DNA of 64,000 bases, from assembly GCA_002083825.1 (NCBI GenBank), contig DAZV01000039.1, positions 9,733-73,732 on the forward strand, in the 5' to 3' direction. Shown piece by piece: positions 6,184 through 43,965 of this stretch; positions within the stretch are counted from its first letter, which is position 1, and every line of letters begins with the position of its first letter. The translations under genes were made by a program, and so were the position numbers. The stretch comes from Candidatus Sericytochromatia bacterium S15B-MN24 CBMW_12 (GTDB lineage Bacteria; Cyanobacteriota; Sericytochromatia; S15B-MN24; UBA4093). The notes below the pieces were generated by a model that was not told the DNA's origin, searched no databases, and saw only the letters and a program-made list of their open reading frames with translations.

Positions 6184-6308
6184 GCTTCCGGTTGCTCTCC
6201 GACCAACCTTCCGTTACAATTTATTACAAGGCTGGCCCCGGGTTCCCGCATGGGAGTCCGGGCCAACAGTTGTAAGGGATCCGTACGTAGAAGGGGGGAC
6301 CTTTCCTG

Positions 6309-8249: not shown

Positions 8250-8566
8250 TAACTAGCGAGAAGGTTTTCGGCGTCCTCGAGGGAGCTGAGGATCATGGTG
8301 CGCTTGCGGCAAGGCCCCTCCGGATAGGAGATGCGAAGCCAGACTTCCTCGCCTTCCGAGAGGCGCCAGAGGGCGTCCGTCAAGGGAAGGGGGGCGGCTC
8401 CGGCTTCAGGAGGGGTTTCGCAGCGGCTGGTTCCACCGGCGAGAATCAGGGAGAGCGCCTTTTGCGCTTCTTTCATGGGGCCGGGAACGGTCGGGGTCTT
8501 GAGACTCCCGGGGGGCGATGTAACTGCGAGGAGGCTTGGGCTTTCCGTGATCGTCAGGTGGCGCAT
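8249..8566 (-). CDS. hypothetical small protein
   Basis: ATG at 8566 (MRHLTITES...) is preceded by AAGGAG. No recognisable domain. Coding status is uncertain because an antisense ORF of similar size exists. Confidence 0.4.
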   Translation of the reverse strand: MRHLTITESPSLLAVTSPPGSLKTPTVPGPMKEAQKALSLILAGGTSRCETPPEAGAAPLPLTDALWRLSEGEEVWLRISYPEGPCRKRTMILSSLEDAENLLAS

Positions 8567-8703
8567 GCGCGTTCTCCTTCTCGGACCGGAGGAGCGGGTT
8601 CTCGGGATCATATTCCCTCTCCCTAGGTTATCGAAACTCGCGGCTCTTTTCAAGAACGGGGGAATCCGGTACGCTGAGGGGCATTCGAAAAGGAGGGGTC
8701 GCT

Positions 8704-12369: not shown

Positions 12370-13053
12370 ATGCGCGTCTTGATCGTCGAGGACGAACAGG
12401 AACTTGCAGCGGCGTTGCGTGAGGCCATGGAGAGCATCGGTCATGCGGTTGACCTGGCGCCCGACGCGGAGCTTGCCGAGGAGTTCCTGGCGGCTTATCC
12501 GTACGATCTGGCGATTCTCGACGTCATGCTCCCGCGGCGATCGGGTCTCGACGTCTGCCGGTTTGCCCGGGCGCGCAAGCTGGACTTGCCCATCCTCATG
12601 CTCACCGCCCGCGATACCCTCGCCGACAAGGTCGCGGGGCTCGACGCGGGGGCGGATGACTACCTGGTCAAACCCTTCGAACTCGCCGAGTTGCTCGCGC
12701 GGGTTCGCGCGCTTCTGCGCCGCCACTCCCCTCGCAAGGATGCGGTATTGCGGGTGGGGGATCTCTCGCTCGACCCGGCAAGCGGCGAGGTCCTGAGGGG
12801 CGGAACTCCCATCCGGCTGGCACGCAAGGAGCGGGCACTTCTGGAGGTCTTGATGCGCAATGCCGGTCGGATCGTGCCGCGCGCCCGGATTCTCGAGCAT
12901 CTCTGGGACATGGACGCGGAACCGGATCCGGAAGTCATCCGGGCGCATGTCAAGCTGCTCCGCAGGGCGATCTCCGATCGACACGAGCCTCGCCTGATCG
13001 AAACCGTCCATGGCGTCGGGTACCGGATGAACGCGGATGTTCAGGACGCTTAA
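12370..13053 (+). CDS. OmpR-family response regulator
   Basis: Receiver domain 'MRVLIVEDE...DLAILDVMLP...LTAR' and a winged-helix output domain ending 'IETVHGVGYRM'. Confidence 0.92.
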   Translation: MRVLIVEDEQELAAALREAMESIGHAVDLAPDAELAEEFLAAYPYDLAILDVMLPRRSGLDVCRFARARKLDLPILMLTARDTLADKVAGLDAGADDYLVKPFELAELLARVRALLRRHSPRKDAVLRVGDLSLDPASGEVLRGGTPIRLARKERALLEVLMRNAGRIVPRARILEHLWDMDAEPDPEVIRAHVKLLRRAISDRHEPRLIETVHGVGYRMNADVQDA

Positions 13054-14257
13054 ACGCCGGCTGACCGGCTTCTACCTCCTGGTGCTCGTTACGTTGCTGG
13101 CCCTCTACGGAGTTGGCGCCTATTCGCTCTTTCGCTTCTCGACGATCGACGGCCTCGACCACCTCAATGCGCGGATGATCGCTCCGGTCGTCGCCGAGTT
13201 CAACCAAGAGCACGAGGGCTACGCCGAGGTGATCCACGAGCTTGCCGAGGTGGCCATCGGTGAGCGTGAGCATCTCGCACTCTTGACCCGCACGGGGCGG
13301 GTGCTCTATGCCCGGGGCGTCCAGCTCGATCCCGAGCCCGAGCTTCATCCGGGCGCGTTCGCCCTCGGCGGGGCCGATCCCATGCGCCTCCTGGTTCTTC
13401 CCCTGCAACGGGACGGGGAAACGATAGGCTATCTGCGGGTCGGGCAATCACTGCTCGAGCCCGAGCGCGCCATGGCGACCCTGGCCTGGGGCCTGGCGGC
13501 ACTGACGCCGCTTGCCATCGGGCTGGCTTACATCGGAGGAAGCTGGCTCGCGGGACGGGCGGTCAAACCCGTCGAGGACGCCTTCGAGCGGGAGCGCCAG
13601 TTCACCCGGGACGCCTCGCACGAACTGAGGACTCCGCTCGCGGTCCTGCTGGCCCATGCGCAGCTCGCGCTCTCCGATCCCGAGATCCCGGACGGAGCGC
13701 GCGCCAAGCTCCAGATCATCGAGCGATGCGCGCGGAGCATGTCCGTCATGGTCGGGGATCTCTTGACCTTGGGGCGGGCCGATTTCGGAAACCAGGACGC
13801 GGGGGTGGCGTTCTCGCTGGAGGAACTGGTGGAGGAAGAGGTCGAAAGTCTGCTACCGCTCGCCACGGAGCGAGGCATGACCTTGGCTTTCACGTCGGTA
13901 GCCGAGCGATCATGGGTTAACGGCGATCCCGCGCGGATCGCGCAGGCCGTGAGGAATCTGCTCGACAACGCCATGCGTTACGCCCCCGGGGGCTCCCGGA
14001 TCGAGGTTTGCTTGCGGGAGCGTGGCGGGCGATTGGCCTTGACCGTGGCCGATTTCGGGGCGGGGATTCCCTTGGATCAGCAGGAGCGGATCTTCGAACG
14101 CTTCGTGAGGTTGGACGAGGCCCGCAGGGTGAATCCCGCGGGATCCGGGCTCGGACTGGCCATATCGCGGGCGGTGGCGCGCGCCCACGGGGGGGATCTG
14201 ACCCTCGAGTCCCAGGCGGGGCGAACGGTCTTCACGCTTTCGATTCCGACGGTCTGA
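13037..14257 (+). CDS. sensor histidine kinase (two TM segments, HisKA + HATPase_c)
   Basis: H-box 'FTRDASHELRTPL', N-box 'NLLDNAMRYAP', G-boxes 'DFGAGIP' and 'GSGLGLAISR'. It overlaps the regulator gene by 17 nt. Confidence 0.9.
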   Translation: MFRTLKRRLTGFYLLVLVTLLALYGVGAYSLFRFSTIDGLDHLNARMIAPVVAEFNQEHEGYAEVIHELAEVAIGEREHLALLTRTGRVLYARGVQLDPEPELHPGAFALGGADPMRLLVLPLQRDGETIGYLRVGQSLLEPERAMATLAWGLAALTPLAIGLAYIGGSWLAGRAVKPVEDAFERERQFTRDASHELRTPLAVLLAHAQLALSDPEIPDGARAKLQIIERCARSMSVMVGDLLTLGRADFGNQDAGVAFSLEELVEEEVESLLPLATERGMTLAFTSVAERSWVNGDPARIAQAVRNLLDNAMRYAPGGSRIEVCLRERGGRLALTVADFGAGIPLDQQERIFERFVRLDEARRVNPAGSGLGLAISRAVARAHGGDLTLESQAGRTVFTLSIPTV

Positions 14258-14677: not shown

Positions 14678-15166
14678 ATGAGTAAGCTGCAAGAAACATG
14701 GATTCGCGAGCGGTTTCCGCAACTGGTGGGGCTGATGGTGGTCGGGGGCTTCGCCCTGATCCTCGCGGAACTGCTCTTGATGGATCATACCGAGAAGACC
14801 CAGAAGATCGGCGTTTTGATGACGGTCGTCGGGATGCTGGGCGCGGGCCTGGGGCTCGTGGTCGGTCCCCGGTTTCGCAAGGCGCTCTTGGGCGTCTTGG
14901 TGCTGGTGGCGGCAAGCGGATTGTTCGGAACGTACGAGCATCTGGAGGAAGCGCAGGAGCACCGGGAGAAGGCGGCTAAGCGCCAGCAGAGCACCCTGGT
15001 GGTTCGGAAGGCGGATTTCGACCGTTCGGCCTCGCTCGAGTCCGAGGCGGGCGAGCATGACAAGGAAGAGAAGGAGGAGTCCGGTCCGCCACCGCTCGCT
15101 CCCTTGGGCGTGAGCGGCCTGGCGGTGCTGGGGGGGCTGGCTCTGATGGCGCGTAAGGCGGCGTAA
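14678..15166 (+). CDS. hypothetical membrane protein
   Basis: Three to four hydrophobic helices and a charged central segment. AAGGAAGG RBS. Confidence 0.6.
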   Translation: MSKLQETWIRERFPQLVGLMVVGGFALILAELLLMDHTEKTQKIGVLMTVVGMLGAGLGLVVGPRFRKALLGVLVLVAASGLFGTYEHLEEAQEHREKAAKRQQSTLVVRKADFDRSASLESEAGEHDKEEKEESGPPPLAPLGVSGLAVLGGLALMARKAA

Positions 15167-15178
15167 CCGGCGCCTCCC

Positions 15179-15442
15179 CTAGGCTTGCGACGATCTTGCC
15201 AGGATCGACTTCTCGACGAAGTCTACCAGGGCCTCGACGGTGGCCACCTGGCGCATCTGGTCGTCCTCGATGAAGAGGTCGAACTCATTCTCGAGGGCCA
15301 CGGTGATCTCGGCGATGTTGATGGACTCGGCGCCCAGGTCCCGCACGATGTGTGCGTCCGGGCGAAGGGTGGTCGAGTCTTCGATCATGAGCACGTCGGC
15401 CAGGATGGCGACGATCTGGGTTTGTAACGCGGTGCGATCCAT
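15179..15442 (-). CDS. acyl carrier protein (free-standing)
   Basis: 87 aa, acidic. The phosphopantetheine-site motif 'DLGAESINIAEI' has Glu-Ser in place of the usual Asp-Ser. Start trimmed to MDRTALQ with an AGGAGG RBS. It is the last gene of the lipid operon. Confidence 0.8.
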   Translation of the reverse strand: MDRTALQTQIVAILADVLMIEDSTTLRPDAHIVRDLGAESINIAEITVALENEFDLFIEDDQMRQVATVEALVDFVEKSILARSSQA

Positions 15443-15453
15443 GGGGCAGCCTC

Positions 15454-16887
15454 CTAGAAAGACCATAAAGGGGAGCGACGGGGGGGACGAATCCGGGCGG
15501 GGGCCGCCTGCAAGGCCTCGAGGGATGTGATGAGCTCCCGCCGGGTATGCCGGGGATCGATGACCGCGTCGACGATCCCGGCTCGCTGGGCGGCATAGGC
15601 GTCCGACGGGACGCGTCGAAGACCCTCCAGGGCCTCCTTGCGGAAGGCGTCGGGGGCCTCATGAGTCAGGAATTCCTTGCCATGCAGGATGGCGAAGCTG
15701 GCCTCGGCGCCCGCGATGCCGATCTGGGCCGTTGGGTAGGCGAGGACCCTATCCCCTCCTGCTTGCTTGGCCTGCAGCATGACGAAGGCACCTCCGAAGC
15801 ACTTCCGAACGATCAAGGCGATACGGGGCACGTCCGTGTCGACGGCATGAAACAGGACTCCTCCGGCCGATAGGATGGCGGCCTGCTCTTGCTCGACGCT
15901 CACCATGATGCCCGGTACGTCGACCAGGTAGAAGAGCGGCAAGCCATGGGCGTCGCAAAGCCGCACGAAGCGGCTGGCCTTACGGATGGCCTCCACGTCG
16001 AGGGCGCCGCCGCGCACCTTGGACTGGTTGGCGACGAGGCCCACGGGGTGACCGTCGAGTCGGGCGACGCCTACGACGATCGGCTCGCCCCAGGAGCGGT
16101 GGACCTCCATGAACGATCCCCCGTCGAAGATGGCCTCGATCAGGCCCCGGACGTCGTAGGGGACAAAGGGGCTCTTGGGGACGACGGCTTCGATTTCCGC
16201 GCCGGAGGGTGGCACGGGCTCGCGACGGTCCCTTGACAGGTAGCCGAGCATGGAGCGCAGCTCGGCGATGCAGGAGGCGTCGTCATCGGCCAGGAAGTGC
16301 GCGACCCCGCTCTTGGCAGCATGCATGGAGGCCCCGCCGAGCTCGTTGAGGTTCACTCGCTGCCCGGTCGCGACCCTGATGACCGAAGGACTGGTGGTGA
16401 AGGTGTAGCTCTCGCCGGGAATCATCCAGACCAGATCCGCGAGGGCCGCGATGTAGGCGGGGACCCCTGAACAGAGCCCCATGCAGGCCGTGAGCTGGGG
16501 TGCCACCCCGGAGTGCCGCGTGAGGGACAGGAACAGCTCGGCATTCCCCCCCAGAGAGCCATAGCCCTCGGAGACCCGGGCGCCGTTAGACTGCAAGAGG
16601 GCCACCACCGGCAGCCGTTTTCGGGACGCGCGCTCCAGCAACGTGATGATGCTGCGGGTCTCGGCGATTCCTAGCGTGCCTTCCTCGACCAGGTAGTTGC
16701 TCGCATAGGCCAGCGCCGGGCGCCCTTCCACGGTACCTTCGGCCGTCACGACGGCCTGCTTCCATGCCTCGTCCCAGTTCGGGGCGTTCAACAATGCCAG
16801 GGATCCCTCGTCGAACAGGGCCTTCAGACGATCCTCGAACGAGAGCTGTCCCAGTCGCTTCAGTTTGGTCAGATAGCGTGCTTTCAA
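15454..16887 (-). CDS. acyl-CoA carboxylase carboxyltransferase (AccD/PccB beta-subunit family)
   Basis: 477 aa with a two-lobed carboxyl-transferase layout ('VVALLQSNGARVSEG...', 'GGASMHAAKSGVAHF', 'VGLVANQSKVRGGALDVEA', 'KCFGGAFVM'). TTG start 7 nt after AGGAGG. Confidence 0.85.
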   Translation of the reverse strand: MKARYLTKLKRLGQLSFEDRLKALFDEGSLALLNAPNWDEAWKQAVVTAEGTVEGRPALAYASNYLVEEGTLGIAETRSIITLLERASRKRLPVVALLQSNGARVSEGYGSLGGNAELFLSLTRHSGVAPQLTACMGLCSGVPAYIAALADLVWMIPGESYTFTTSPSVIRVATGQRVNLNELGGASMHAAKSGVAHFLADDDASCIAELRSMLGYLSRDRREPVPPSGAEIEAVVPKSPFVPYDVRGLIEAIFDGGSFMEVHRSWGEPIVVGVARLDGHPVGLVANQSKVRGGALDVEAIRKASRFVRLCDAHGLPLFYLVDVPGIMVSVEQEQAAILSAGGVLFHAVDTDVPRIALIVRKCFGGAFVMLQAKQAGGDRVLAYPTAQIGIAGAEASFAILHGKEFLTHEAPDAFRKEALEGLRRVPSDAYAAQRAGIVDAVIDPRHTRRELITSLEALQAAPARIRPPRRSPLWSF

Positions 16888-16898
16888 GTCGCGTCCTC

Positions 16899-17912
16899 CT
16901 ACAGCACGAGCGCGACGGCACCGGCCGTGTAGCCGCCGCCGGCCGCCGTGAGCACCAGGCGATCGCCCTTCTTGATTCGACCGGCATCCGAGGCCAGCTT
17001 CAGAGACAGGGGGATGGTGGCGCTCGAGCAGTTCCCCGTGCGCTGGATGAACTCGGCGCAGCGATCGGGGGGAACGCCGAGTTCATCCCGGATGGCCCGG
17101 ATCATTCCCAGGTTCGCCTGATGGGGAACGAGGTAGTCCACGTCATCCAGGCGCCAGCCGGCCATCTCCATGACCTCCCGGGCACAACGCACCATCGTCT
17201 CGGTCGCCCGCTCGAAGATCTCGCGGCCGTCCTTCATTTCCATGTACTGCCGCCCCGAGGCCAGGCGTTCCGGGGTCAAGGGGAGCCTGGAGCCGCCACC
17301 GGGAATGGTCACGTTGCGCGTCCCCGCCCCATCGGCATAGAGGACCATGGCCTGGAGGCCTTCGGTGCGCGATGGCTCGCGGGAGACGAGCAAGGCGCCC
17401 CCCGCGGCGTCGCCGTAGATGGGCAGGATGCGCCCCTCCCGGGGGTTGATCTGGCGCGAGCGGATCTCGCTCGCGAGCACCAGCACCCGATCCTCGCCGG
17501 TCATGAGCGCCCGGCTCGCGGCTTCGATGGCGTAGAGAAAGCCCGAACATGCGGCCGAGACGTCGTAGGCGGGGTACGTGCAGCCCGGCTCCAGGCGATC
17601 CTGGACGGCGCAGGCCGTCGAGGGCATGATCCAGTCTCCCGAGGTGGTGGACACGATCAGGCGATCGAGTTCATGGGCACGGATGCCCGCCCGATTCAGG
17701 ATCCGGCTGGCCGCCTCGAAGGCCAGGTCGGAGGCGGCCTGGTCCGCGGCGGCCCAGCGGCGCTCCTCGACGCCGATTCGCCCGCGGATCCAGGACTCGG
17801 TGACGGGCAGGCCGAACTCCGCTATCAGATCCCGGTTGGTGACGACGCGCGCAGGCCAGTAGGCGTCGAGCGCCGCCAGTCCGACGCGCCCTTCAACGTT
17901 CAGCCTGGCCAT
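16899..17912 (-). CDS. 3-oxoacyl-ACP synthase III (KASIII/FabH-like), paralogue 1
   Basis: Cys/His/Asn triad contexts 'DVSAACSGFLYA', 'LVPHQANLGMI', 'GNCSSATIP'. Start trimmed to MARLNVEG with a GGGAGG RBS. It overlaps the SDR gene end. Confidence 0.85.
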   Translation of the reverse strand: MARLNVEGRVGLAALDAYWPARVVTNRDLIAEFGLPVTESWIRGRIGVEERRWAAADQAASDLAFEAASRILNRAGIRAHELDRLIVSTTSGDWIMPSTACAVQDRLEPGCTYPAYDVSAACSGFLYAIEAASRALMTGEDRVLVLASEIRSRQINPREGRILPIYGDAAGGALLVSREPSRTEGLQAMVLYADGAGTRNVTIPGGGSRLPLTPERLASGRQYMEMKDGREIFERATETMVRCAREVMEMAGWRLDDVDYLVPHQANLGMIRAIRDELGVPPDRCAEFIQRTGNCSSATIPLSLKLASDAGRIKKGDRLVLTAAGGGYTAGAVALVL

Positions 17913-18672
17913 CGGCCGCCTCCCGGATGTACATGGCCGACAGAGGGTTGCCGAGATGCAGCCCGCCATCCACCCGTAGCGTCTCTCCGGTGATGAAGGA
18001 GGCCTGGGGTGAAGCCAAGAAAGCGACGGCGTTGGCCACGTCCATGGGATCTCCCAGCCGTCGAACGGCCGAGGCCAGGGCGAATCGTCGAGCCTTGGCC
18101 TTCCCGAAGAGTTCCAGGCGTTCGGTGAGAACGGGACCCGGCTGGATGATGTTGGCCGTCAGACCATGGGGCGAGTAGTCGATCGCGAGGTTCCGGATCA
18201 GGCCTTCCATGGCGGCCTTCGAGGCGCAGTAGGCGGGCCCGTAGGCCTCTCCCAGGGAGGCTGCGAGCGAGCTGATGGCGATGATCCGGCCCCATCGCCG
18301 CTCCAGCATGCCCGGGATCACCGCCGCGCTGAGACTGGCCGCGGCGAAGAAGTTCACTTCCATGACCCGGCGCAGCGTTTCCATGCCCCCCTTCAGGAAG
18401 GGCGCCAGTTCGGGGGGATGGGCGGCGTTGTGGACCAGGATGTCGACATGGCCGATCTCGGCGAGAATGGACTCGACCGCGCCCTCGCAAGCGAGGTCCG
18501 CGACGAACGTGCGAACTCCGCCTCCGGACCGGGCCTCGAGCGCCGCGAGGCGATCACCTCGGCGTCCCACTCCGACCACGCGGGCCCCCGCCGTTTCGAG
18601 CGCCAGGGCGATCGCCGCTCCCATGTCGCTCGTGGCCCCGGTGACGAGCGCTACCTTCCCGTTCAGGTTCAT
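17893..18672 (-). CDS. SDR-family oxidoreductase (3-oxoacyl reductase-like)
   Basis: 'GKVALVTGATSDMGAAIA' Rossmann motif and the 'YCASKAA' YxxxK motif. The ATG at 18672 forms an ATGA overlap with the upstream stop. Confidence 0.85.
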   Translation of the reverse strand: MNLNGKVALVTGATSDMGAAIALALETAGARVVGVGRRGDRLAALEARSGGGVRTFVADLACEGAVESILAEIGHVDILVHNAAHPPELAPFLKGGMETLRRVMEVNFFAAASLSAAVIPGMLERRWGRIIAISSLAASLGEAYGPAYCASKAAMEGLIRNLAIDYSPHGLTANIIQPGPVLTERLELFGKAKARRFALASAVRRLGDPMDVANAVAFLASPQASFITGETLRVDGGLHLGNPLSAMYIREAADGQAER

Positions 18673-19721
18673 GTCCATCCCTTCCACAAGGCGGAGCCCC
18701 AGCGCATGCCGCCTCCCAGCGCGCTGAGCGCGCACCAGCCCTCGGGCCGCTCGTGCCTTACCTCATGCAGGGCCATCAACAGGGAGGCCGCGCCCGTATT
18801 GCCGTACCGCTCGATCGTCGTGACCATGCGCAGATCCGGCCTTCCGAGCGAGCGATGAACGTCCTGCAGGATGGGCAACGAAACCTGGTGCGGGATCCAG
18901 AGTGCCAGCTCATCCATGCCGACCTGTGTCCTGGCGACCAGCTCCTGCAAGCCGTCTCGGTAGCGCGCGACGACCAGGTCGCGGGTCTGAGTCGGAGCCC
19001 CCCGGTAGTAGAAGGCGCCCGAGTCGATGTCCGCCTGACGGGGGGGCATGGAGCCGAAAACCCCCGCGTGATCCCATGTGGAGTACTCGCCGCCGAGCAG
19101 GCACGCGAAGTTCGGCTCCGGGGCCGCCTCGAGAACGAGCGCCCCCGCGCCGTCGCCCACGTTCAGGAAGCCGGAGAGAGCCTGGGCGTCCACGTATTTG
19201 CTCATGGTGTCCGAACCGACCACCAGCACGCGGCGGTAACCGTTCGCCAGGCTCATGGCTGCCCACTGCAGGGAGTACACGCTGCCCGCGCACCCGGCCT
19301 TGAGATCGAAGCTGGGGCCCATGTAACCCAGGCGCGCACAAAGGGGGCTCGCCGAGGGCAGCGTGGCCATGGGGGAGGTGTTGAGGGCGAGGATCACCAG
19401 ATCGAGATCGGAAGCTTGAAGTCCGGCATCCCTCAGGGCGGCCGAGGCCGCCTCGGTGGCCAGGTCGATGGCCGTCGCCTCGTCCTCGCGCGCCTCGGAG
19501 CCGACCCAGTGGCTCCAGTGGCGGCGCTGCCCCCCGCTGGCCGCGATCATTCGCTGCATGGCCTGCTGCTTGCGCAGGGAGAGTTCCCCGTACCCGAGGA
19601 CGCCGAGCATGTCCGCGTTGGTGACGACGTCTTTGGGGCCGTCGGGCGTGGGGCAGCTCGGCACGGCGATTCCCGAGCCCCGGACGCGCATGGATCCTCG
19701 GATGAGTGGCAACTCAGGCAT
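18669..19721 (-). CDS. KASIII-like condensing enzyme, divergent paralogue 2
   Basis: Thiolase-fold triad contexts 'DLKAGCAGSVYSL', 'WIPHQVSLPIL', 'YGNTGAASLL'. The N-terminal region is longer and more divergent than FabH. It overlaps the FAAL gene end by 8 nt. Confidence 0.8.
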   Translation of the reverse strand: MPELPLIRGSMRVRGSGIAVPSCPTPDGPKDVVTNADMLGVLGYGELSLRKQQAMQRMIAASGGQRRHWSHWVGSEAREDEATAIDLATEAASAALRDAGLQASDLDLVILALNTSPMATLPSASPLCARLGYMGPSFDLKAGCAGSVYSLQWAAMSLANGYRRVLVVGSDTMSKYVDAQALSGFLNVGDGAGALVLEAAPEPNFACLLGGEYSTWDHAGVFGSMPPRQADIDSGAFYYRGAPTQTRDLVVARYRDGLQELVARTQVGMDELALWIPHQVSLPILQDVHRSLGRPDLRMVTTIERYGNTGAASLLMALHEVRHERPEGWCALSALGGGMRWGSALWKGWT

Positions 19722-21372
19722 CCTGCAGAGGCCTACGTGACTCGATGTGGCGTTGACGGGCCTCGGAGCGTCTCACCTTGCCACTGGTGGTCTTGGGAAG
19801 GGACCGTGGCGGCAGGAGGATCACCTCGTCCACCCGCAGGCCGACATGCTCCATGACCCGCGTCCGGATGGCCCGGTGCAGCGCTTCTCGCTCGACGGCC
19901 ACCTGGAGGCGGGTCTCGACGTGCATCACGAGGTGTTCCGGCGCCCCGAACTCCTGGGAGTAGGAGAAGGCGATCGCTCCGCCGTTGCGGACCTCCGGCA
20001 GCGCCTCGGCGATCGCCTCGATGTCCTGGGGGTGGTATTTGCAGCCTCCCCTGATGATCAGGTCCTTGACGCGGCCCGTCACGTAGAGGCGCCCGGCGGA
20101 CAGGTAGCCCAGGTCCCCCGTGCGCAGGAATCCGCCCTGCAGGGCCTCTTGGCTCGCGGCGGCGTCTCCGAAGTAGCCGTCCATGATCGAGGGGGACTGC
20201 GCCCAAATCTCCCCGATTTCCCGCTCGGGGAGGTCCGCGCCACCTTGGTCGCGGATGGCGAGGGTGACGCCCGGCATGGGGGGCCCCACGCAGACGATCT
20301 CCTGGGCTGCTGCGTCCGGGTTCCCGGCAAGGACGGCCGACCGGTGCTCCTCGTAGGCCGCCCGCGTCAGGCGCTCGACCTGCATGCCTGCGCCGGGGCG
20401 GGTCATGGCGACCCCGAGCGTCGCCTCCGCGAGCCCGTAGGCGGCGACGAAGGCCCCAGGATCGAAGCCATGCGGCTGCATTCGCTCGGCAAAGGCCCTC
20501 AGCGTCGCTGGGCGGATGGGCTCGGCGCCCACCATTGCCGCGCGCCAGCGCGATAGGTCGAGTCCCGACAGGTGCGAGTCCGACAGGCGGGTGCAAAGCT
20601 GATAGGCGAAGTTGGGCGCCACCGAGATGGTGGCCCCGTAGTCGGAGAGGGCCCGCAACCAGCGAATGGGATGCTGGATGAAGTGCTGAGGGGGCATCAA
20701 GACCAGATGGCAGCCGACGACCTGGGAAAAGATCAGCTTGCCGATCAGGCCCAGGTCATGGTGCAAGGGGAGCCAGGAGACGAGCACGTCCTGGGGACCG
20801 GCCTCCAGCACGTCCCTGATGGCCCACGTGTTCGCCAGGAGCTGGGTCCAGCCCAGAGCGGCCCCCTTGGGGTGGCCGGTGCTGCCCGAGGAGAATTGGA
20901 TGATTCCGCCTCCGGGTCCTGCCGGCAGCCTGGCGTCACCGGTTGCTTGCGGCAGATCGTCGGGCGTCAGGATCAAGCACGGGGCGTCCGGCAGCAGGAG
21001 CCGGTTCTCGGGGGTGACGAGCGCGAGGCGTGGATCCGCCTTGACGAGCGTCCGGAGCAGCCGGAGCCTCTCGTGATCCTGTCCCGGCGTGGGCGGGGCC
21101 AGCGGGACCACCGTGGCGCCAAGCATCCAGGCCCCGAAAAGGGCTCCCAGGAAGTCCTCGCAGGTCGGCAGGACGAGGGCCAGTCGATCTCCCTCTCGCA
21201 GACCCGCTTGCTGCAGGCGCGCCGCCCATCCCATGGCGAGGGCGCTCAAATCGGCCCCCGTGTAGGACCTTGGGCCTGCGTCCTCGAACAAGGTCAGGCG
21301 AACGCGCCCGTGGTCCTTGATCCATTGTTCGTTGACCTGGATAATCAGAGAGTCTTGCGCCGTGAAAGCCAT
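19714..21372 (-). CDS. fatty acyl-AMP ligase (FAAL)-type adenylating enzyme
   Basis: Motifs 'IQFSSGSTGHPKGA', 'SWLPLHHDLGLIG', 'APNFAY', 'YGLAEATL', 'RTGDLGY', 'GRVKDLIIRGGCKYHPQDIE' match the FadD32/FAAL pattern as I remember it. Start is at MAFTAQDS (21372). The tracked 1027-aa ORF is an artefactual upstream extension. Confidence 0.85.
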   Translation of the reverse strand: MAFTAQDSLIIQVNEQWIKDHGRVRLTLFEDAGPRSYTGADLSALAMGWAARLQQAGLREGDRLALVLPTCEDFLGALFGAWMLGATVVPLAPPTPGQDHERLRLLRTLVKADPRLALVTPENRLLLPDAPCLILTPDDLPQATGDARLPAGPGGGIIQFSSGSTGHPKGAALGWTQLLANTWAIRDVLEAGPQDVLVSWLPLHHDLGLIGKLIFSQVVGCHLVLMPPQHFIQHPIRWLRALSDYGATISVAPNFAYQLCTRLSDSHLSGLDLSRWRAAMVGAEPIRPATLRAFAERMQPHGFDPGAFVAAYGLAEATLGVAMTRPGAGMQVERLTRAAYEEHRSAVLAGNPDAAAQEIVCVGPPMPGVTLAIRDQGGADLPEREIGEIWAQSPSIMDGYFGDAAASQEALQGGFLRTGDLGYLSAGRLYVTGRVKDLIIRGGCKYHPQDIEAIAEALPEVRNGGAIAFSYSQEFGAPEHLVMHVETRLQVAVEREALHRAIRTRVMEHVGLRVDEVILLPPRSLPKTTSGKVRRSEARQRHIESRRPLQDA

Positions 21373-21486
21373 GCGATCGCCGTTTCGTAACGAAGTGGGG
21401 AGTCTTGTTCGGCTATACCCAAGCCCGTACGAAAGAGCACCTAACGGGCAATACCTCGTGTCGGCCTCAACCTGAAGGGATACCTC

Positions 21487-22047
21487 ATGACGGATTGGAT
21501 CACCCTCGTCGCCATCATCGGCAGCACCCTGCTGCATTTCATCCTGGAAGGACGGATCAAGGCCAATCCCACGGCCGCGGATCGCGTCTTCGACCTCAAG
21601 AGCGCGCGGCTCTGGAACCTGATCACCCTGTCCTGCATGGCCTTGCCGCTCATCGAGATGGCGATCCTGGGCCCCGTGACGCCTTGGCCGCGCGGGGCCA
21701 TGCTGGGACTGCCCCTCATGACGCTCGGCATGGGGCTGCGCTACCAGGCGATCCTCCAGCTCGGGGCGTACTTCACCTATCCCATCTGCCTGCGCCCGGA
21801 GCATCGGCTGGTCCAGGAGGGTCTCTACCGCCGCTGGCGCCACCCTAGCTACTTCGCCAACTTCCTCATCCTGACGGGTGCCTGGACCATGCTGCAGAGC
21901 CGCTGGTTGCCTTTCGGAATCCTCGCCTACGCCGCCATGACCTGGTACCGCATCCGGCGCGAGGAGAAGGTGCTGCTGGAGCATTTCGGGGAGGATTACG
22001 CCCGCTATCAGGCGAGCAGCAAGGCGCTGATACCCTTCGTCCTTTAG
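21487..22047 (+). CDS. isoprenylcysteine carboxyl methyltransferase (ICMT/PEMT)-family membrane methyltransferase
   Basis: Five hydrophobic helices. Family motif 'GLYRRWRHPSYFANFLIL' and C-terminal 'REEKVLLEHFGEDYARYQ'. It is divergent from the FAAL gene. Confidence 0.8.
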   Translation: MTDWITLVAIIGSTLLHFILEGRIKANPTAADRVFDLKSARLWNLITLSCMALPLIEMAILGPVTPWPRGAMLGLPLMTLGMGLRYQAILQLGAYFTYPICLRPEHRLVQEGLYRRWRHPSYFANFLILTGAWTMLQSRWLPFGILAYAAMTWYRIRREEKVLLEHFGEDYARYQASSKALIPFVL

Positions 22048-22100
22048 CGCCAGCGGCTGTTGATTAAGGCAGCGAGAGAACGCCGTCGAGCTTTGCTCTA
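22045..22100. repeat. intergenic repeat family, short form copy B
   Basis: 'tagcgccagcggctgttgattaaggcagcgagagaacgccgtcgagctttgctcta'. Its first TAG is the stop of the ICMT gene and its last CTA is the TAG stop of the minus-strand acyltransferase gene. Confidence 0.85.
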
Positions 22101-22883
22101 AAGCGATCGCGCGAGGGGCCTGGCCGGATTCCCGCCCCAGCGCTCCTGCGCTGGGATGTGGGTGCCCTTCTCGACCACCGAGTTCCAGTCGAGCTCGCAG
22201 CCGTCGCCGAGGGTGCAGTTGGACTGGATCATGCAGTAGGGGCCGATCTTCACCCCCGAACCCACCCTGACGTTCGGGCTGAGCGCGGTGCGGGCCCCGA
22301 TGAGGCAGTCCTCTCCGATGGTCACCCCCGGACCGACCTCGGCGGCGCCGCCCAGGACGCTGCGGCTCCCGATCCGGATGCTCCCGAACAGGAGGGTGTG
22401 GCCCTCTCCGCCCAGGTGGGTGGCGAGGCTCGAGAGGGTTCCCAGCGTCACGTCGTCTCCTACCTCGACGAGGCAGGGCTCCAGGATCGTGACGTAGGGG
22501 GCGATGTTGGTTCGGCGGCCGAGCTTGGCTCCCATGAGCCCGAAGTAGAGGCGCTGGAAGGAGATGAAGGTGCTCAGGAAGGGCTTCAGCTCCCCGAGGG
22601 CGAAGCCGTGGAAGAGCGTGTAGAATCCCCAGCGCAGGAAGGTAGGGGATCCGGCCGGCGCTGGCCCCGGCGTCAGGCGTCCCACCAGGAGGCGCGAGAG
22701 CACGCCGCAAAGGATCAGGAACAGGAAGATGCCCAGGTACCCCAGGAAGGGCAAAACCCCGACGAGGCCCCAGACTCCCCCGCGTCCGAAGGCCCACTGC
22801 CCCACGAGAACCATGGGCCCGAAGGCAATGGGAGCCAAGAGGGCGACCAGGATCAGCCGCATGAGATCGTAGAGGATCAGCAT
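22098..22883 (-). CDS. membrane-anchored hexapeptide-repeat (left-handed beta-helix) acyltransferase
   Basis: The N-terminal ~110 aa have 3-4 TM helices. The C-terminal part shows imperfect hexapeptide periodicity ('VEVGDDVTLG', 'IRIGSRSVLGGAAEVGPGVTIGEDCLIGARTALSPNVRVGSGVKIG'). AGGAG RBS. Confidence 0.75.
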   Translation of the reverse strand: MLILYDLMRLILVALLAPIAFGPMVLVGQWAFGRGGVWGLVGVLPFLGYLGIFLFLILCGVLSRLLVGRLTPGPAPAGSPTFLRWGFYTLFHGFALGELKPFLSTFISFQRLYFGLMGAKLGRRTNIAPYVTILEPCLVEVGDDVTLGTLSSLATHLGGEGHTLLFGSIRIGSRSVLGGAAEVGPGVTIGEDCLIGARTALSPNVRVGSGVKIGPYCMIQSNCTLGDGCELDWNSVVEKGTHIPAQERWGGNPARPLARSL

Positions 22884-22890
22884 AAGGCTC

Positions 22891-24126
22891 CTAGTAGCTC
22901 ACGTGCTCGATCTTGCGCCGTTCGACGACGCGGATCCGGTCGGGGGCGTCCATCTCGTAGGTGACGCCCCGCCAGGTGATGCGGTTGGTCGGGATGGAGG
23001 CGACCACGTTGACGAGCCCCAGAAGGCTGGTGAGTGGCATGGCGAGGAGGTAAGCGAGGGGCAGCTTGCGGTAGTGCTCCGCGTTCTCCGGCACCGCGTC
23101 GCGCAAGGCCCCGAGCATGATGGCGCCCATCAGCCAGGTCAGGGGGGCATGGGTCAGAAGCAGGAATATGGCGGGGTCGAGCTGTCCCCGGAAGAGCCCC
23201 ATCGTCAGCAACACGAGGCTCATGAGCAGGAAGAAGTTGGGCAAGCCGTAGGAGATGAAGGCCGTTCCCCACATGCGACCGAGGTAGACCTTGGCGATTG
23301 CCATCTGGCGGTTGGTCCATTCCAGCAGGCCGGGCATGGTCGCGTTCTCGAAGGTGCCCACCACGCAGTGGGGGACGAAGCAGATTCCCAGGCCCGCCTC
23401 CTTGACCGAGGCGGCGACGAGGGGACCGTCACAGAGGGCTTGCTCCCATCGCCGGGCAATCTCCAGGCGCTCGAAATTGTGACGAAGGATGGCCATGGAA
23501 CCGGCCCAGGTGCCGTTCAGCTTGTCGTTCGCGAGCACCGCCGTGGACATCATGCTCCAGGAGGAGCGCAACAAGGAGGCGAGGTTGCCGTCGGTCGGGA
23601 AGATCATGCGGTAGCCGGTGCTCGCACCGAACTGCGGATCCCCGAGGGGACGAACCAGGTCCCTCAGCCAGGAGGCATGGGGTCGGATATCCGAATCGAT
23701 GAAGACCAGGGCCTGCGAGTCGGGATCCGCATGGCGCAGCCCGACCAGGTGGTTGTGGTTCTTCTCGCTGCACAAGGAGCCGTGACCCGACACGACGATC
23801 CGGGCGCGAACGCCCGGATGGGCCGCGATCGCTTCTCGGATGACCGGCAGGCAGGGATCCGTCTCGTCGGCCACCACGCAGAGCAGTTCCCAGTCCGGAT
23901 ACTCCTGGCCGAAGATGGCTGCCAGGTTCTCCTTTAGCCCGGGGTCGAGGCCCTTGCAGGGCAAAAGGATGCTGCAGCGAGGCGAGAAGTCGGGGAAATT
24001 CCGGCTCGGGAAGTCCCGGACATACTGCCTGAACCGCATGGCCAGCGCCACCGGGACCAGGTTGAAGGCCAGGGCCAAGAGGCCCACTGAGAGGGTTCCG
24101 GCCGAAAAGCCGCTGAACGTGATCAT
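22891..24126 (-). CDS. glycosyltransferase family 2 (GT21 ceramide-glucosyltransferase / HpnI-like)
   Basis: N-terminal TM helix, then 'CSILLPCKGLDPGL', 'ALVFIDSDIRP' (DxD-type), followed by C-terminal TM helices. The ATG at 24126 forms an ATGA overlap with the MMPL stop. Confidence 0.8.
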   Translation of the reverse strand: MITFSGFSAGTLSVGLLALAFNLVPVALAMRFRQYVRDFPSRNFPDFSPRCSILLPCKGLDPGLKENLAAIFGQEYPDWELLCVVADETDPCLPVIREAIAAHPGVRARIVVSGHGSLCSEKNHNHLVGLRHADPDSQALVFIDSDIRPHASWLRDLVRPLGDPQFGASTGYRMIFPTDGNLASLLRSSWSMMSTAVLANDKLNGTWAGSMAILRHNFERLEIARRWEQALCDGPLVAASVKEAGLGICFVPHCVVGTFENATMPGLLEWTNRQMAIAKVYLGRMWGTAFISYGLPNFFLLMSLVLLTMGLFRGQLDPAIFLLLTHAPLTWLMGAIMLGALRDAVPENAEHYRKLPLAYLLAMPLTSLLGLVNVVASIPTNRITWRGVTYEMDAPDRIRVVERRKIEHVSY

Positions 24127-26309
24127 GAGGGGATCCTGCCGTTTCTGAAGTGTGGCCCGCGAGGCCACCAGTAGTTCCAGCGACCCATCAGGGCCATCAT
24201 GGAGGGAACCAATACCAGACGAATGAGCGTTGCGTCAACCAGGATCGCCACCGAGAGGCCGAGGCCTATCTCCTTGAGGGTCCGGATTTCCATGGCCAGG
24301 TAGGGCAGAAAGACGCTGAGCATCACCAACGCGGCCCCGAGCACGACGCCGCTCGAGCGCTGCAGGCCGTCGGCGATCGCCTCGAGGGGCGGCATCCCCT
24401 CGTCATGGGCTTCTCGGATGCGCGCCAGAATGAAGAGCTCGTAGTCCAGGCTGATCGCATAGAGCACCGAGAAGAGGATCAGAGGCGTGAGGCTCTGGAC
24501 GTAGCCATTGCCGTAGGTGCCGAGGAACTGCGCTCCGAACCCGTACTGGAACACGGCGACCACCGCCCCGAAGCCGGCCAGCACCGGTAGCAGGTTGGTC
24601 AGGATGGCCTTGATCGGAAGGATGGCCGAACGCAGGAACCGCGCGAGCAGGAAGTAGGAGCCGAAGAGGTTGATGCCCAGGACCCATGGCAGGGCCTTCT
24701 GGAGGGCTCTCTGGGAGTCCTCTTGCTCGGCGAGCATTCCTCCCAGGTAGGGCCTGGCTTCAGGGATCGGATTCTCCCCCAGCGTGCGCGCCAGGTCCGA
24801 GAGCAGTCCGGCCCCCTCGGGACTGTCCGGCGCAAGGCGTGTCGTGACGCGCATGAGGGTGATGCGTCCGTCCGGACTCAAGGGTGAGGAAGGCAGCACC
24901 AGGCCCGCGAGGGACGACTTCAGGAGGTGGGAGAGTGCCGCCGGACTCAGGCCGCGATCGCTCGCGAGGCTTTCGACCCGGGCAACCCGCGGATCGGCGG
25001 CGATGGCCGCTTCGACCCTGCGCAGGCCCGCGAGGAAGGCTTCCTCCTTGGCTCCGTCCGGGCGATCGCACTGCCAGGTGACGAGGATCGGGCTCACGAG
25101 GCCGCCCTCCCCACGGGAGAGCAGCCACTCGAAACCGCGGTAGCTCTCGAGCCCATGAGGCAAGAGGGAGATGAAGGGAGACCAGGTCCTGGCGTGAGCG
25201 ATGGGGAGGATGAGTAGCCCCAAGAGCAGGGACGAGAACAGCAAGGAGCGCCGCGGCCTCTGGACGATGGCGCGGCTGAGCCTCCCCCAGGTACGCGCGG
25301 CGGGGCGGTCCTTGATCCGCAGGAGCGAGGCCAGGGGGAAATAGCGTCCGAGCAGGAAGAGCGCGCTCGGGATCAGCGTGAGCGTGAGGGCCGCCGCGAT
25401 CGGTCCCGTCAAGGCGACCGTCAGTCCGATGGACCGGACCTCCGGGACGGCGACGACCAGGAGCGAGAGCCCCCCAAGCGCGATGACGAGGCTCGAGAGG
25501 CCCACGGTCCTCCCGGCGGTAGCCAGCGTTCTCGCCAGGGCGCCCTCGGGGTTCTTGGCATGTTCTTCTTTCAGGCGCGAGAGGAGGATCAAGGGGTAAT
25601 CGATCCCCAGGGCCATGGCCAGGATGGCGACCATGATCTGGTTGAGGCTGGAGACGGGTAGCCAAGGGAGCAGGAGCGCCATGACGAGGTTGCCCGCAAG
25701 CAGGGTCGATAGGCCCGAGAGCAGGGACAGCGCGGCCATGAGGATGCCCCGGAAGGTGAGGACGAGCACGATCATGGAGATCAGGAGGGACACCTTCTCG
25801 ACCCGGGCGAGGTCGTCGCTGAGCTGCTGGAAGGCGTCGTAGGCGGCCGCCCCCGGCCCCGTGAGGGCCGCCTCGACGCCGGGCGGCAGCGTCACTTGGC
25901 GGATGGCCCCGCGCAGTGCGGGGATCATGCGGGCCGGCGGGATCCCGCGCTCGGTGATCACGAGGAGGGGGGTGGCGCCCTGAACGCCGCGCACGCCGGG
26001 GACCGCGCGGAGGGCGCGCTCGAGGTCGGGTTCGACCTGCCGGGCGACTTCGGGATCACCGCTCAGGACGAGGAGGTGGTGCGAGCCGTCCAGGGCGGGG
26101 AGGGCCCGGGACAGGTGAAGGCGGGCCATGGCCGAGTCGGAGTTGGGAGGGGGGGCTTGTTCTTGGACCAGGCGCGTCGCGAGGTGCGGAGCCAGCCAGG
26201 CCCCCAGGGCAAGGACGATTGCCCAGCCGAGCACCCAGAGGAGCGGCCAGCGCTGGACCCGGGGGCCAATTCGGGTCGAGAGGTCGGATGGTGTCGTGGA
26301 TCGTCCCAA
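24123..26309 (-). CDS. MMPL/RND-superfamily lipid exporter
   Basis: Two blocks of ~6 TM helices separated by soluble loops, typical of MMPL proteins. The proposed TTG start at 26309 lies 9 nt after GGGAGG. The upstream 88 codons of the tracked ORF have no Met and overlap the divergent promoter region, so the start is uncertain. Confidence 0.8.
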   Translation of the reverse strand: MGRSTTPSDLSTRIGPRVQRWPLLWVLGWAIVLALGAWLAPHLATRLVQEQAPPPNSDSAMARLHLSRALPALDGSHHLLVLSGDPEVARQVEPDLERALRAVPGVRGVQGATPLLVITERGIPPARMIPALRGAIRQVTLPPGVEAALTGPGAAAYDAFQQLSDDLARVEKVSLLISMIVLVLTFRGILMAALSLLSGLSTLLAGNLVMALLLPWLPVSSLNQIMVAILAMALGIDYPLILLSRLKEEHAKNPEGALARTLATAGRTVGLSSLVIALGGLSLLVVAVPEVRSIGLTVALTGPIAAALTLTLIPSALFLLGRYFPLASLLRIKDRPAARTWGRLSRAIVQRPRRSLLFSSLLLGLLILPIAHARTWSPFISLLPHGLESYRGFEWLLSRGEGGLVSPILVTWQCDRPDGAKEEAFLAGLRRVEAAIAADPRVARVESLASDRGLSPAALSHLLKSSLAGLVLPSSPLSPDGRITLMRVTTRLAPDSPEGAGLLSDLARTLGENPIPEARPYLGGMLAEQEDSQRALQKALPWVLGINLFGSYFLLARFLRSAILPIKAILTNLLPVLAGFGAVVAVFQYGFGAQFLGTYGNGYVQSLTPLILFSVLYAISLDYELFILARIREAHDEGMPPLEAIADGLQRSSGVVLGAALVMLSVFLPYLAMEIRTLKEIGLGLSVAILVDATLIRLVLVPSMMALMGRWNYWWPRGPHFRNGRIPS

Positions 26310-26595
26310 GCCCCCGAGCCTCCCTAAAAAGCAAGCACAATGGAATTCCTGGCGGGATGAGAGCCCTGTACCCCGGGTCGGTTCAAGGCTAACGGCCGCG
26401 TCTGCTTCAAGGAGGGCCTGCGCGCCTGGGGCCCCGATCAACGGGTTTTTTTTCACTTGCCGTTCGGGAGGGGGGCTGGCGCGTCGGGACGAGATCGCGG
26501 CCGGCTGGAGAATTTGCTCTCCAGCCGGTTGATCGGTATCGGAGCATTGGCGTGGTATGCTTTGGGGGTTCACATCACGTCACGGGAGGTGGGCC

Positions 26596-28284
<1,689 letters not shown>

Positions 28285-28309
28285 TCGACTGGCGACCAGG
28301 AATGCTGGG

Positions 28310-28318
28310 TGGTATAGT
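28310..28318 (+). promoter_or_regulatory. extended -10 element (TGgTATAGT) upstream of second GH57 gene
   Basis: TGnTATAGT at 28310-28318, 33 nt upstream of the ATG at 28352. There is no good -35. Confidence 0.3.
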
Positions 28319-28351
28319 GGAAGCGACTATTTTACCGCCTGAGGACACTCC

Positions 28352-41296: not shown

Positions 41297-41370
41297 GGGG
41301 TTGTAGTTCAGTTGGTTAGAATGCCGCCCTGTCAAGGCGGAGGTCGCGGGTTCGAGCCCCGTCAACCCCG
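41297..41370 (+). tRNA. tRNA-Asp (anticodon GTC)
   Basis: Cloverleaf read by eye: acceptor GGGGTTG/CAACCCC, anticodon stem CCGCC/GGCGG with loop CTGTCAA, T-arm GCGGG-TTCGAGC-CCCGT. There is no encoded CCA. Confidence 0.95.
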
Positions 41371-41372
41371 CT

Positions 41373-41413: not shown

Positions 41414-41501
41414 CGCCATCACCCGCGCGCCGGCCGGAATTCGCAAGATTCTCGGTTAAGACGGCGACAATCCCCCTCGGGGAGAACCCCGGGAGAAGGC
41501 C

Positions 41502-43890: not shown

Positions 43891-43965
<75 letters not shown>

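Follow-up and report, generated by a model that had tools for sequence, protein, structure and literature searches.

A conserved and rare cluster of stand-alone lipid-synthesis genes in Candidatus Sericytochromatia

Candidatus Sericytochromatia is a non-photosynthetic sister lineage of the oxygenic cyanobacteria, and literature searches found no characterised lipid or natural-product pathway from it. Here, a set of ten genes is described that lies at positions 15179-26309 of a 64,000-nucleotide stretch of Candidatus Sericytochromatia bacterium S15B-MN24 CBMW_12 (assembly GCA_002083825.1, contig DAZV01000039.1, positions 9,733 to 73,732 of the forward strand). This whole stretch is referred to as the window, and all positions are counted from its first letter. 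A reading made from the letters alone (the original prediction) had interpreted the genes as a lipid cluster in which mycolate-type and OleA-type parts for head-to-head condensation are mixed with glycosylation and export functions. The genes do form a cluster, one that is conserved, rare and so far uncharacterised; the best explanation is an orphan lipid cluster of type II (stand-alone enzymes), characteristic of Sericytochromatia-like Cyanobacteriota. The mixed mycolate/OleA head-to-head interpretation is partly supported.

The gene cluster

Scans against Pfam and NCBIfam upheld every domain assignment that had been made for the ten genes. Six of them form a first minus-strand unit with tight or overlapping junctions (overlaps of 4-13 nt). 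In the direction of transcription, a fatty acyl-AMP ligase (FAAL, 19714..21372; NF006624, 417 bits, with the C-terminal domain PF23024) is followed by KASIII-2 (18669..19721; 160 bits to FabH models), a divergent FabH-fold ketosynthase of beta-ketoacyl-acyl carrier protein synthase III (KASIII) type and the signature gene of the cassette. Next come a classical, FabG-like short-chain dehydrogenase/reductase (SDR, 17893..18735; adh_short and adh_short_C2, 145-168 bits) of the beta-ketoacyl reductase kind and a second, FabH-type ketosynthase, KASIII-1 (16899..17969; NF006829, 284.6 bits against a cut-off of 249). The unit is closed by the carboxyltransferase (CT, 15454..16887; PF01039, 338 bits), a 477-residue homologue of biotin-dependent carboxyltransferase beta subunits of the PccB/AccD type, and by a dedicated acyl carrier protein (ACP, 15179..15466; PF00550 (PP-binding), 38.5 bits). 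The FAAL and KASIII-2 genes overlap by 8 nt, and the same overlap occurs in two related loci (L002 and L023). From synteny with the relatives, the true start of the ACP gene is probably at 15442, 11 nt past the CT stop, that of the SDR gene probably at 18672, in an ATGA overlap with KASIII-2, and that of KASIII-1 probably at 17912.

The second minus-strand unit is a single operon that runs from an MMPL-family RND transporter (24123..26309; PF03176, 214 bits) through a GT2/GT21 membrane glycosyltransferase (22891..24168; PF13641, PF13506 and PF00535) to a membrane-anchored hexapeptide acyltransferase with a left-handed beta-helix (22098..22883; PF00132). The MMPL reading frame is open as far as 26573. 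An AGGGAGG box precedes the TTG at 26309, and a start at this TTG is sensible because of this box and because it avoids an overlap with the divergent GH57 gene. The tenth gene, for a membrane methyltransferase of the ICMT/PEMT family (21487..22047; PF04140, 60 bits; PF04191, 46 bits), is on the plus strand and divergent from the FAAL gene. Hydrophobic membrane segments are present in the methyltransferase, the acyltransferase, the glycosyltransferase and the transporter alike.

As had been predicted, no dehydratase, enoyl reductase, thioesterase, type I polyketide synthase (PKS) or OleB-type hydrolase (no alpha/beta-hydrolase of any kind) was found with Pfam among the open reading frames (ORFs) tested across the 64 kb. 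The same holds for biotin carboxylase (BC), biotin carboxyl carrier protein (BCCP), FabD and phosphopantetheinyl transferase (PPTase). Scans for Rfam families, tRNAs, promoters and terminators gave nothing relevant inside the cluster.

Conservation and distribution

KASIII-2 was chosen as probe for relatives, being the most distinctive protein of the cluster. In a collection of 5.8 billion sequences it finds 28 clusters at 49-60% identity, after which the identity falls abruptly to 34%, the level of ordinary FabH. An exhaustive search of 1.84 billion representatives at 50% identity reduces the orthologous group to one representative (349 bits, next match 170 bits). Exact-sequence look-ups of KASIII-2 itself, in forms of 350 and 340 residues, gave no match. 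When one genome per GTDB species is taken, orthologues occur in 2 loci only, both in metagenome-assembled genomes (MAGs) of Candidatus Sericytochromatia. The CT has orthologues at 54-64% identity; below these come a second tier from Sericytochromatia and cyanobacterial MAGs (42-48%) and then acyl-CoA carboxylase beta subunits from Streptomyces (38-40%). The phosphoenolpyruvate carboxylase of the window, which is taxonomically indicative only, has its closest relatives at 72-79% identity, with cyanobacterial MAGs at 52-54%. The closest named relatives are thus Sericytochromatia and cyanobacterial MAGs, in line with the original remark that the envelope context does not look like Corynebacteriales.

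The neighbourhoods of about ten related metagenomic loci were compared, and their flanks differ in every one. FAAL, KASIII-2, SDR, CT and ACP are found in all of these loci, with SDR-CT-ACP always contiguous. Because the five genes recur in about ten independent loci with differing flanks, their co-localisation is not due to chance, and the predicted dedicated cluster of stand-alone enzymes is indeed conserved as a unit. In one relative (L022) the six genes stand in an order identical to that of the window, at identities of 49% (FAAL), 60% (KASIII-2), 63% (SDR), 59% (KASIII-1), 59% (CT) and 68% (ACP). Across all relatives the SDR is 54-64% identical, and the ACP gene directly follows that of the CT in L002, L005, L021, L023, L024 and L027. 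A second FabH-like KASIII is present in most related loci, usually within a trio of AMP-ligase, ACP and KASIII; the KASIIIs that are paired in this way with an AMP-ligase and an ACP are 38-40% identical to KASIII-1.

A hexapeptide acyltransferase, an MMPL or an ICMT-type methyltransferase often accompanies the cassette. Homologues of the acyltransferase (28-33% identity) stand beside the FAAL in L001, L004, L005, L023 and the P0022 locus; in L025 the homologue lies at another place in the cluster. An MMPL gene (about 30% identity) adjoins the cassette ACP in L023 and L024, and MMPL genes occur in 3 of about 11 loci overall. An ICMT/PEMT gene adjoins the FAAL in a single related locus, P0022. 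The GT2 gene was found only in the window and in none of the other loci compared; L025 has a GT1-like gene instead. L025 itself is a divergent sister cluster from Sericytochromatia (CT 42% identical) with two KASIIIs, CT, ACP, SDR, AMP-ligase and hexapeptide acyltransferase, and in addition a methyltransferase, the GT1-like protein, an aminotransferase and a thioesterase. In L027 (4767-17283), about 3.4 kb with a MarR-like gene and ORFs of no assigned family split KASIII-2 from SDR-CT-ACP. There the cassette is followed by genes for a PntA/PntB transhydrogenase, a fatty acid desaturase, a FAAL and an aldo-keto reductase, which hints at NADPH supply and substrate desaturation.

The flanks of the cluster in the window are unrelated to it. 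They consist of two GH57 genes on one side and, on the other, of a two-component system (12370-14257) together with a small ORF for a membrane protein. The ORF of 162 residues at 14678-15166, convergent with the ACP gene, encodes several hydrophobic segments and an acidic, Lys/Glu-rich middle; it has no Pfam match, and no homologue of it was found in the related loci. Carbohydrate genes surround the cluster (26557-30523, 8551-11310 and 47510-48925), among them the two GH57 genes (of branching-enzyme and 4-alpha-glucanotransferase type), a GH38 alpha-mannosidase-like gene and a GH1 gene. CoA esters could come from the product of a gene at 6291-8165, 7 kb off the cluster, that resembles long-chain acyl-CoA ligases. 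Further away, a 791-residue LRV/HEAT-repeat protein (41460-43835) is encoded between tRNA-Asp (41297-41371) and tRNA-Met (43891-43965).

Activation, reduction, tailoring and export proteins

The adenylating enzyme, a member of the ANL superfamily, is a true FAAL. Its best PDB match is the E. coli FAAL 3pbk (308 bits), and the Legionella FAAL also scores high. Structures of FadD32 reach 180-203 bits and the FadD32 model 230 bits against a cut-off of 975, so that the enzyme is not a FadD32 orthologue. The ACP contains the Ser of the LGAES motif and scores 48.5 bits with the AcpP equivalog, below the cut-off of 70.45. In the SDR, the TGxxxGxG and YxxxK motifs are present, and FabG models give 150-165 bits.

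The hexapeptide acyltransferase starts with two hydrophobic helices (about residues 6-32 and 35-72). Weak similarity links it to LpxA/LpxD and, through its best NCBIfam match (TIGR02353, E=1.4e-20), to the C-terminal domain of the Pls/PosA synthetases; in relatives it is translationally coupled to an ACP gene. Its helices together with the beta-helix, the likeness to LpxA/LpxD and the coupling to ACP make it a good candidate for off-loading the chain from the ACP at the membrane. In the C-terminal domain of epsilon-poly-lysine synthetase, membrane helices presumably alternate with acetyltransferase-like domains, and the acyltransferase resembles one such repeat. The glycosyltransferase has hydrophobic segments at both ends and stays below the HpnI cut-off (103 of 310 bits). 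Similarly, the transporter scores 156 bits with the MmpL3 model (cut-off 1400) and 57 bits with the HpnN model (cut-off 752).

The ketosynthases

Both KASIIIs retain the condensing-enzyme triad. KASIII-1 has it as Cys141 with the His of VPHQAN and the Asn of GNCSS, and KASIII-2 as Cys134, His268 and Asn298, which are conserved in 23 orthologues. Enzymes that condense head to head without decarboxylation use as base a Glu that precedes the catalytic Cys by 24-26 residues (OleA E117, PpyS E105, NocG E100; PMC9486936). No acidic residue is found at -22 to -28 from the Cys of KASIII-2 in any of the orthologues (0/23), and KASIII-1 has no Glu 24-26 residues ahead of its Cys. The position of OleA E117, which we take to be equivalent to Phe87 of E. 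coli FabH, is occupied by Leu in KASIII-2 (Ile in most orthologues) and by Met in KASIII-1. Since the Cys-His-Asn triad is kept and the Glu base is missing, both KASIIIs should be of the decarboxylative type and require a carboxylated extender. This in turn gives the invariably present CT an obvious role.

The overall similarity of KASIII-2 points in the same direction. Its PDB sequence matches are headed by FabH (110 bits), followed by PqsD, CorB and BioZ, and OleA is absent from them at E<=1e-10. An AlphaFold2 model (mean confidence score, pLDDT, 89) is closest to FabH structures (template-modelling score, TM, 0.79-0.88), with PqsD, BioZ and KASIII also among the top 50 Foldseek matches and OleA absent from these 50; such a fold search confirms a FabH-like fold and says nothing of substrate pockets. 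Two stretches of the model have lower confidence (pLDDT 61-77), at about residues 200-240 and 101-110 of the 340-residue form. One contains a conserved Trp, a Gly-Val and a Pro-Pro, and the other is the loop that carries the Phe87 equivalent. Going by the model, these stretches may form substrate channels that set the family apart from FabH.

The carboxyltransferase

The best PDB matches of the CT are beta subunits of acetyl-CoA carboxylase (ACC) as well as propionyl-CoA carboxylase (260-317 bits). Among these matches, PccB scores 301 bits, MccB 282, AccD6 278 and AccD4 262, and no special affinity for AccD4 or MccB is seen. MccB takes hexanoyl-CoA because its Gly161 replaces a Phe that is universal in enzymes for substrates of C4 or shorter, and its Ala423 replaces Asp422 of PccB (PMC5187497). 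In AccD4 of M. smegmatis (PDB 9t97), Gly (WYAELGRRH) is likewise found at the position of PccB Phe160 and Ala (GGGYAVMG) at that of Asp422. The CT of the window shows the short-chain pattern, with Phe119 as gatekeeper (NAELFLSL) and Val369 at the D422 position (GGAFVML). The gatekeeper Phe is invariant in 25/25 aligned sequences, and the Val is conserved in nearly all orthologues. At this second specificity position, Ile is found in ACC-type enzymes that take acetyl-, propionyl- and butyryl-CoA. Judged by the specificity residues, alpha-carboxylation of long chains by the CT is disfavoured, and the case for it is weakened; this is evidence against it, not proof. The pocket of the CT lies at a dimer interface, which a single-chain model does not represent. 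The CT of a Mycobacteriales locus (L017) is an ordinary ACC beta subunit and not an AccD4, and no residue-level list for the AccD4 tunnel was found in the literature searched on the mycobacterial long-chain carboxylase (LCC).

The clade of the CT has, in addition, deviations of its own on the substrate side. The first oxyanion motif, near-universally GPCAGGAxYSPA, is replaced by GLCxGV[AP]AY[LIM]A, and Asn stands in place of PccB Tyr156 (these stretches correspond to CT residues 137-145 and 113-119, respectively). G[VF]PAY is shared by the second-tier CTs from cyanobacteria and Sericytochromatia. The second, carboxybiotin oxyanion hole (GGA) is kept; both assignments of the oxyanion holes follow the LCC preprint. 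Given these deviations, the substrate of the CT may be unusual. Weak matches to models of malonate decarboxylase subunits were also obtained.

A tentative pathway

The pathway that fits these parts best is a FAAL-primed and CT-fed decarboxylative extension that would yield an acyl-ACP with a 3-hydroxy and possibly a 2-methyl group. Acyl transfer at the membrane would come next, then glycosylation, methylation and export through the MMPL transporter. Each step of this pathway is derived from family membership, and we give it a probability of roughly 45%. First, the FAAL would adenylate a free fatty acid and load it onto the dedicated ACP. The CT would borrow the BC and BCCP of the housekeeping machinery and make a short extender of malonyl, methylmalonyl or ethylmalonyl type. 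Cyanobacteria usually lack methylmalonyl and ethylmalonyl units. The CT has never been lost from the cassette, and a mere duplication of malonyl supply would scarcely have been kept in every locus; an extender without another source in the cell (methylmalonyl or ethylmalonyl) is therefore favoured. The decarboxylative Claisen condensation would then fall to KASIII-2, with KASIII-1 assisting it or acting after it; KASIII-1 might add a second unit or act in priming. The 3-oxo group would be reduced by the FabG-like SDR. As there is no dehydratase, enoyl reductase or thioesterase, the chain should stay a 3-hydroxy (possibly 2-methyl or 2-ethyl) acyl-ACP. The membrane acyltransferase could subsequently move it from the ACP to an acceptor in the membrane or on a sugar. 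Finally, the GT2/GT21 enzyme would add a sugar, the ICMT-type enzyme would methylate the product, probably at a carboxylate, and the MMPL transporter would move the lipid out of the cytoplasmic membrane.

The sister cluster of L025, which also contains a glycosyltransferase and a methyltransferase, supports this pathway. The originally proposed logic of activation, condensation, reduction, decoration and export fits the parts, while the joining of two long chains that went with it is unsupported. Several points weigh against the pathway as drawn here. If the CT made only malonyl-CoA, it would duplicate the housekeeping ACC. FAALs make no CoA esters, and the substrate of the CT needs another source. 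The second of the two KASIIIs (KASIII-1) has no clear place in the route. The glycosyltransferase is confined to this one locus and the acyltransferases share only 28-33% identity between loci; BC/BCCP, FabD and PPTase are not encoded nearby. Lastly, with Gly-Val in place of Gly-Gly in the oxyanion motif and Asn for Tyr156, the canonical specificity rules may not transfer to this CT.

Alternative explanations

A different chemistry on the same scaffold is unlikely, although it survives better than any other alternative. It could take several forms. Two KASIII extensions could lead to a 5-hydroxy-3-oxoacyl pyrone or dihydropyrone, a KASIII could serve as an acyltransferase, the CT could act as a decarboxylase on an ACP-bound carboxylated intermediate, or the cassette could supply the side chain for a five-membered ring of the kind that an AmcB/F/G/H-like set would build in relatives. 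Two ketosynthases stand against a single reductase, and a thioesterase is missing, so that the chain could plausibly release itself by lactonisation, and the weak malonate decarboxylase matches of the CT are consistent with the third form. Both KASIIIs, however, keep the triad of condensing enzymes, and the CT keeps its carboxybiotin oxyanion hole.

The last form is suggested by the relatives, in many of which the cassette is joined to an operon for a hexapeptide acyltransferase, ACP, ketosynthase (KS), a protein of 176-244 residues of no assigned family, AMP-ligase and SDR (L023:117-5205; L001:2694-8020; L021:1-2773; L027:1-1011). The KS of this operon matches the cispentacin AmcF model (228 bits), and the ligases match the model of the 2-oxoglutaryl-ACP ligase AmcH (144-179 bits). 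The 'minimal type' set AmcB/F/G/H builds a five-membered ring from 2-oxoglutarate and malonyl-ACP, as in cispentacin and coronafacic acid (PMC10698177). A GH3-family gene is often found beside the cassette as well (L001:1016-2686, L002:3764-5377, L021:3595-5274); in NCBIfam it matches only the lyso-ornithine lipid synthetase OlsH, and this weakly. The GH3 family presumably comprises acyl-acid amido synthetases, including the jasmonate-conjugating JAR1. The fuller clusters of the relatives may, from their gene content, make cyclopentane-containing lipids, and the Amc-like module and the GH3 gene together hint at amino-acid-conjugated, jasmonate- or prostaglandin-like bacterial lipids. In the window the module is missing: tblastn searches with the module proteins of L023 and L021 found only the FAAL, the distant AMP-ligase at 6291-8165, the SDR and the acyltransferase. 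The module is also lacking in L022, and in both places the cassette is nevertheless intact.

A mycolate-type route is improbable. Here, the CT would alpha-carboxylate a long acyl-CoA or the FAAL-loaded acyl-ACP, KASIII-2 would join a second long chain to it with decarboxylation, and the SDR would give a 2-alkyl-3-hydroxy acid to be transferred, glycosylated and exported. The order FAAL-ketosynthase-(SDR)-CT-ACP mirrors fadD32-pks13-accD4. The fuller relatives, with two activating enzymes, two ACPs and two KASIIIs, would suit a reaction that links two chains. No locus is without the CT, and it is tightly coupled to the ACP. The motifs on the substrate side of the CT are unlike those of all canonical short-chain enzymes and leave room for an unusual substrate, both KASIIIs appear to be decarboxylative, and an MMPL exporter recurs. 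Against this, the pocket-opening Gly and Ala of MccB (PMC5187497) and AccD4 are Phe119 and Val369 in the window. Nor is the CT any closer to AccD4 (262 bits) than to PccB (301 bits), and the window contains one activating enzyme and one ACP only. We know of no precedent for a biotin-dependent CT that acts on an acyl-ACP. The specific version in which KASIII-2 uses an alkylmalonyl thioester, made by the CT from a FAAL-loaded acyl-ACP or a long acyl-CoA, and the resulting mycolate-like 2-alkyl-3-hydroxy lipid is glycosylated and exported by MMPL towards the outer membrane must be regarded as quite improbable. If true, it would constitute a mycolate-like lipid built by stand-alone enzymes outside Actinobacteria, in a non-photosynthetic cyanobacterial lineage.

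Non-decarboxylative condensation of the OleA/Lst/Nlt type, leading to a beta-lactone or an olefin, is very improbable, and this part of the original prediction has to be abandoned. The parts list is superficially alike, consisting of two KASIII-fold proteins, an ANL enzyme and an SDR. In Ole systems, the ANL enzyme OleC is a beta-lactone synthetase and OleB is a hydrolase. The reading fails on every feature tested. Neither KASIII has the Glu base; both are FabH-like, and OleA appears neither among the sequence matches (E<=1e-10) nor among the top 50 folds of KASIII-2; the ANL enzyme is a FAAL and not OleC-like, and no OleB-type hydrolase was seen among the ORFs tested. The SDR is classical, and among its matches at E<=0.001 none to the 3-beta-hydroxysteroid dehydrogenase family, presumably the OleD-type family, is listed. 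Moreover, the CT would be without a role in such chemistry.

Ordinary housekeeping fatty-acid synthesis, with FabH, FabG, AcpP and an ACC subunit as chance neighbours, is rejected as very improbable: KASIII-1 exceeds the FabH subfamily cut-off and the SDR is FabG-like, but FabD, FabF, FabZ and FabI were not found among the window ORFs tested, the ACP is under the AcpP cut-offs, the CT is PccB-type and not of the AccA/AccD type that cyanobacterial ACC uses, KASIII-2 orthologues are extremely rare, and the cluster sits in differing genomic contexts among relatives.

Significance and comparison with known systems

The cassette is among the few gene sets that are seemingly specific to Sericytochromatia, and its signature ketosynthase amounts to one 50%-identity cluster among 15 billion proteins. 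The combination of a FAAL, a carrier protein, FabH-fold ketosynthases and a lone CT was found nowhere in the literature searched; searches on FAAL-KASIII-CT clusters and on Sericytochromatia gene clusters, a FAAL review and the FAALPred paper gave no description of this architecture. The cluster could thus show a new way in which discrete enzymes of lipid synthesis are supplied with extender units and use them. It might also lead to a distinctive glycolipid of the envelope, a potential biomarker for Sericytochromatia, and the CT clade with its unusual active-site motif merits biochemical study.

No characterised cluster was found to match, and this includes the three types that had been named as possible matches. 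Aryl polyene clusters are defined by a pair of KS and chain length factor (CLF), FabZ-like dehydratases, a LolA-like protein and a thioesterase, all of which are absent from 12-30 kb and from the rest of the window. A hopanoid hpn cluster is rejected on the sub-threshold scores of HpnI and HpnN and on the lack of a squalene-hopene cyclase in the window. Heterocyst glycolipid clusters consist of a type I PKS (HglE/HglC-type) and a DevBCA exporter, and neither type I PKS nor ABC-type Dev genes occur in the window.

Other systems share individual features with the cluster. The nocuolin A enzymes NocH/NocG, like OleA/PpyS, offer a cyanobacterial-type FAAL and ACP with a stand-alone thiolase-fold ketosynthase that works on fatty acyl chains; they are, however, non-decarboxylative with a Glu base and have no CT, whereas the KASIIIs described here lack the Glu and a CT is present (PMC9486936). 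From clusters of the AmcB/F/G/H kind, the relatives carry the ACP, the AmcF-like KS and the AmcH-like ligase beside the cassette, and the window retains only the hexapeptide acyltransferase that heads this operon (PMC10698177).

The mycolate system (FadD32, Pks13, AccD4 carboxylase, CmrA, MmpL3) is alike in that a FAAL stands beside ketosynthase and CT genes, reduction is accomplished by an SDR, the chain is transferred to an acceptor and an MMPL exporter is present. Both systems do without dehydratase and enoyl-reductase steps. In the mycolate system, however, condensation is carried out by the type I enzyme Pks13, while the cluster has stand-alone FabH-fold KASIIIs and no type I PKS in the window. 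The AccD4 residues Gly and Ala are Phe and Val in the cluster CT, the FAAL, MMPL and ACP are far under the cut-offs of the FadD32, MmpL3 and AcpM models, and the host is a diderm relative of cyanobacteria.

FabH-initiated priming modules of type II fatty acid synthase (FAS) or PKS systems, such as the ZhuH- or DpsC-type starter modules, resemble the preferred pathway of FAAL-primed decarboxylative extension. They have a Cys-His-Asn KASIII, decarboxylative extension of malonyl type, FabG-like reduction and a discrete ACP in common with it. Their primer is an acyl-CoA, whereas that of the cluster would be FAAL-derived, and the cluster adds the CT and the membrane tailoring and export genes and is without elongating KS/CLF, dehydratase and enoyl reductase.

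The supply of the extender has its counterpart in MccB/SamR0482 of the stambomycin and primycin clusters, where a lone acyl-CoA carboxylase beta subunit likewise stands beside an acyl-activating enzyme with no alpha subunit, and where, as for the cluster CT, primary metabolism presumably lends BC and BCCP for a dedicated extender (PMC5187497). Neither the window nor the inspected neighbourhoods showed a BC or BCCP, and CT, FAAL and ACP are present in all loci. The two differ in that Gly161 and Ala423 open a hexanoyl pocket in MccB, where the window CT has Phe and Val (PMC5187497), and in that a CoA ligase feeds a modular PKS there, in place of the FAAL, ACP and discrete KASIIIs found here. Taken by analogy, the closest functional parallel to the cluster would be a type II FAS/PKS module that is primed by a FAAL, runs for one or two steps and is equipped with an extender carboxylase of the MccB kind; the gene order of the cluster recalls fadD32-pks13-accD4.

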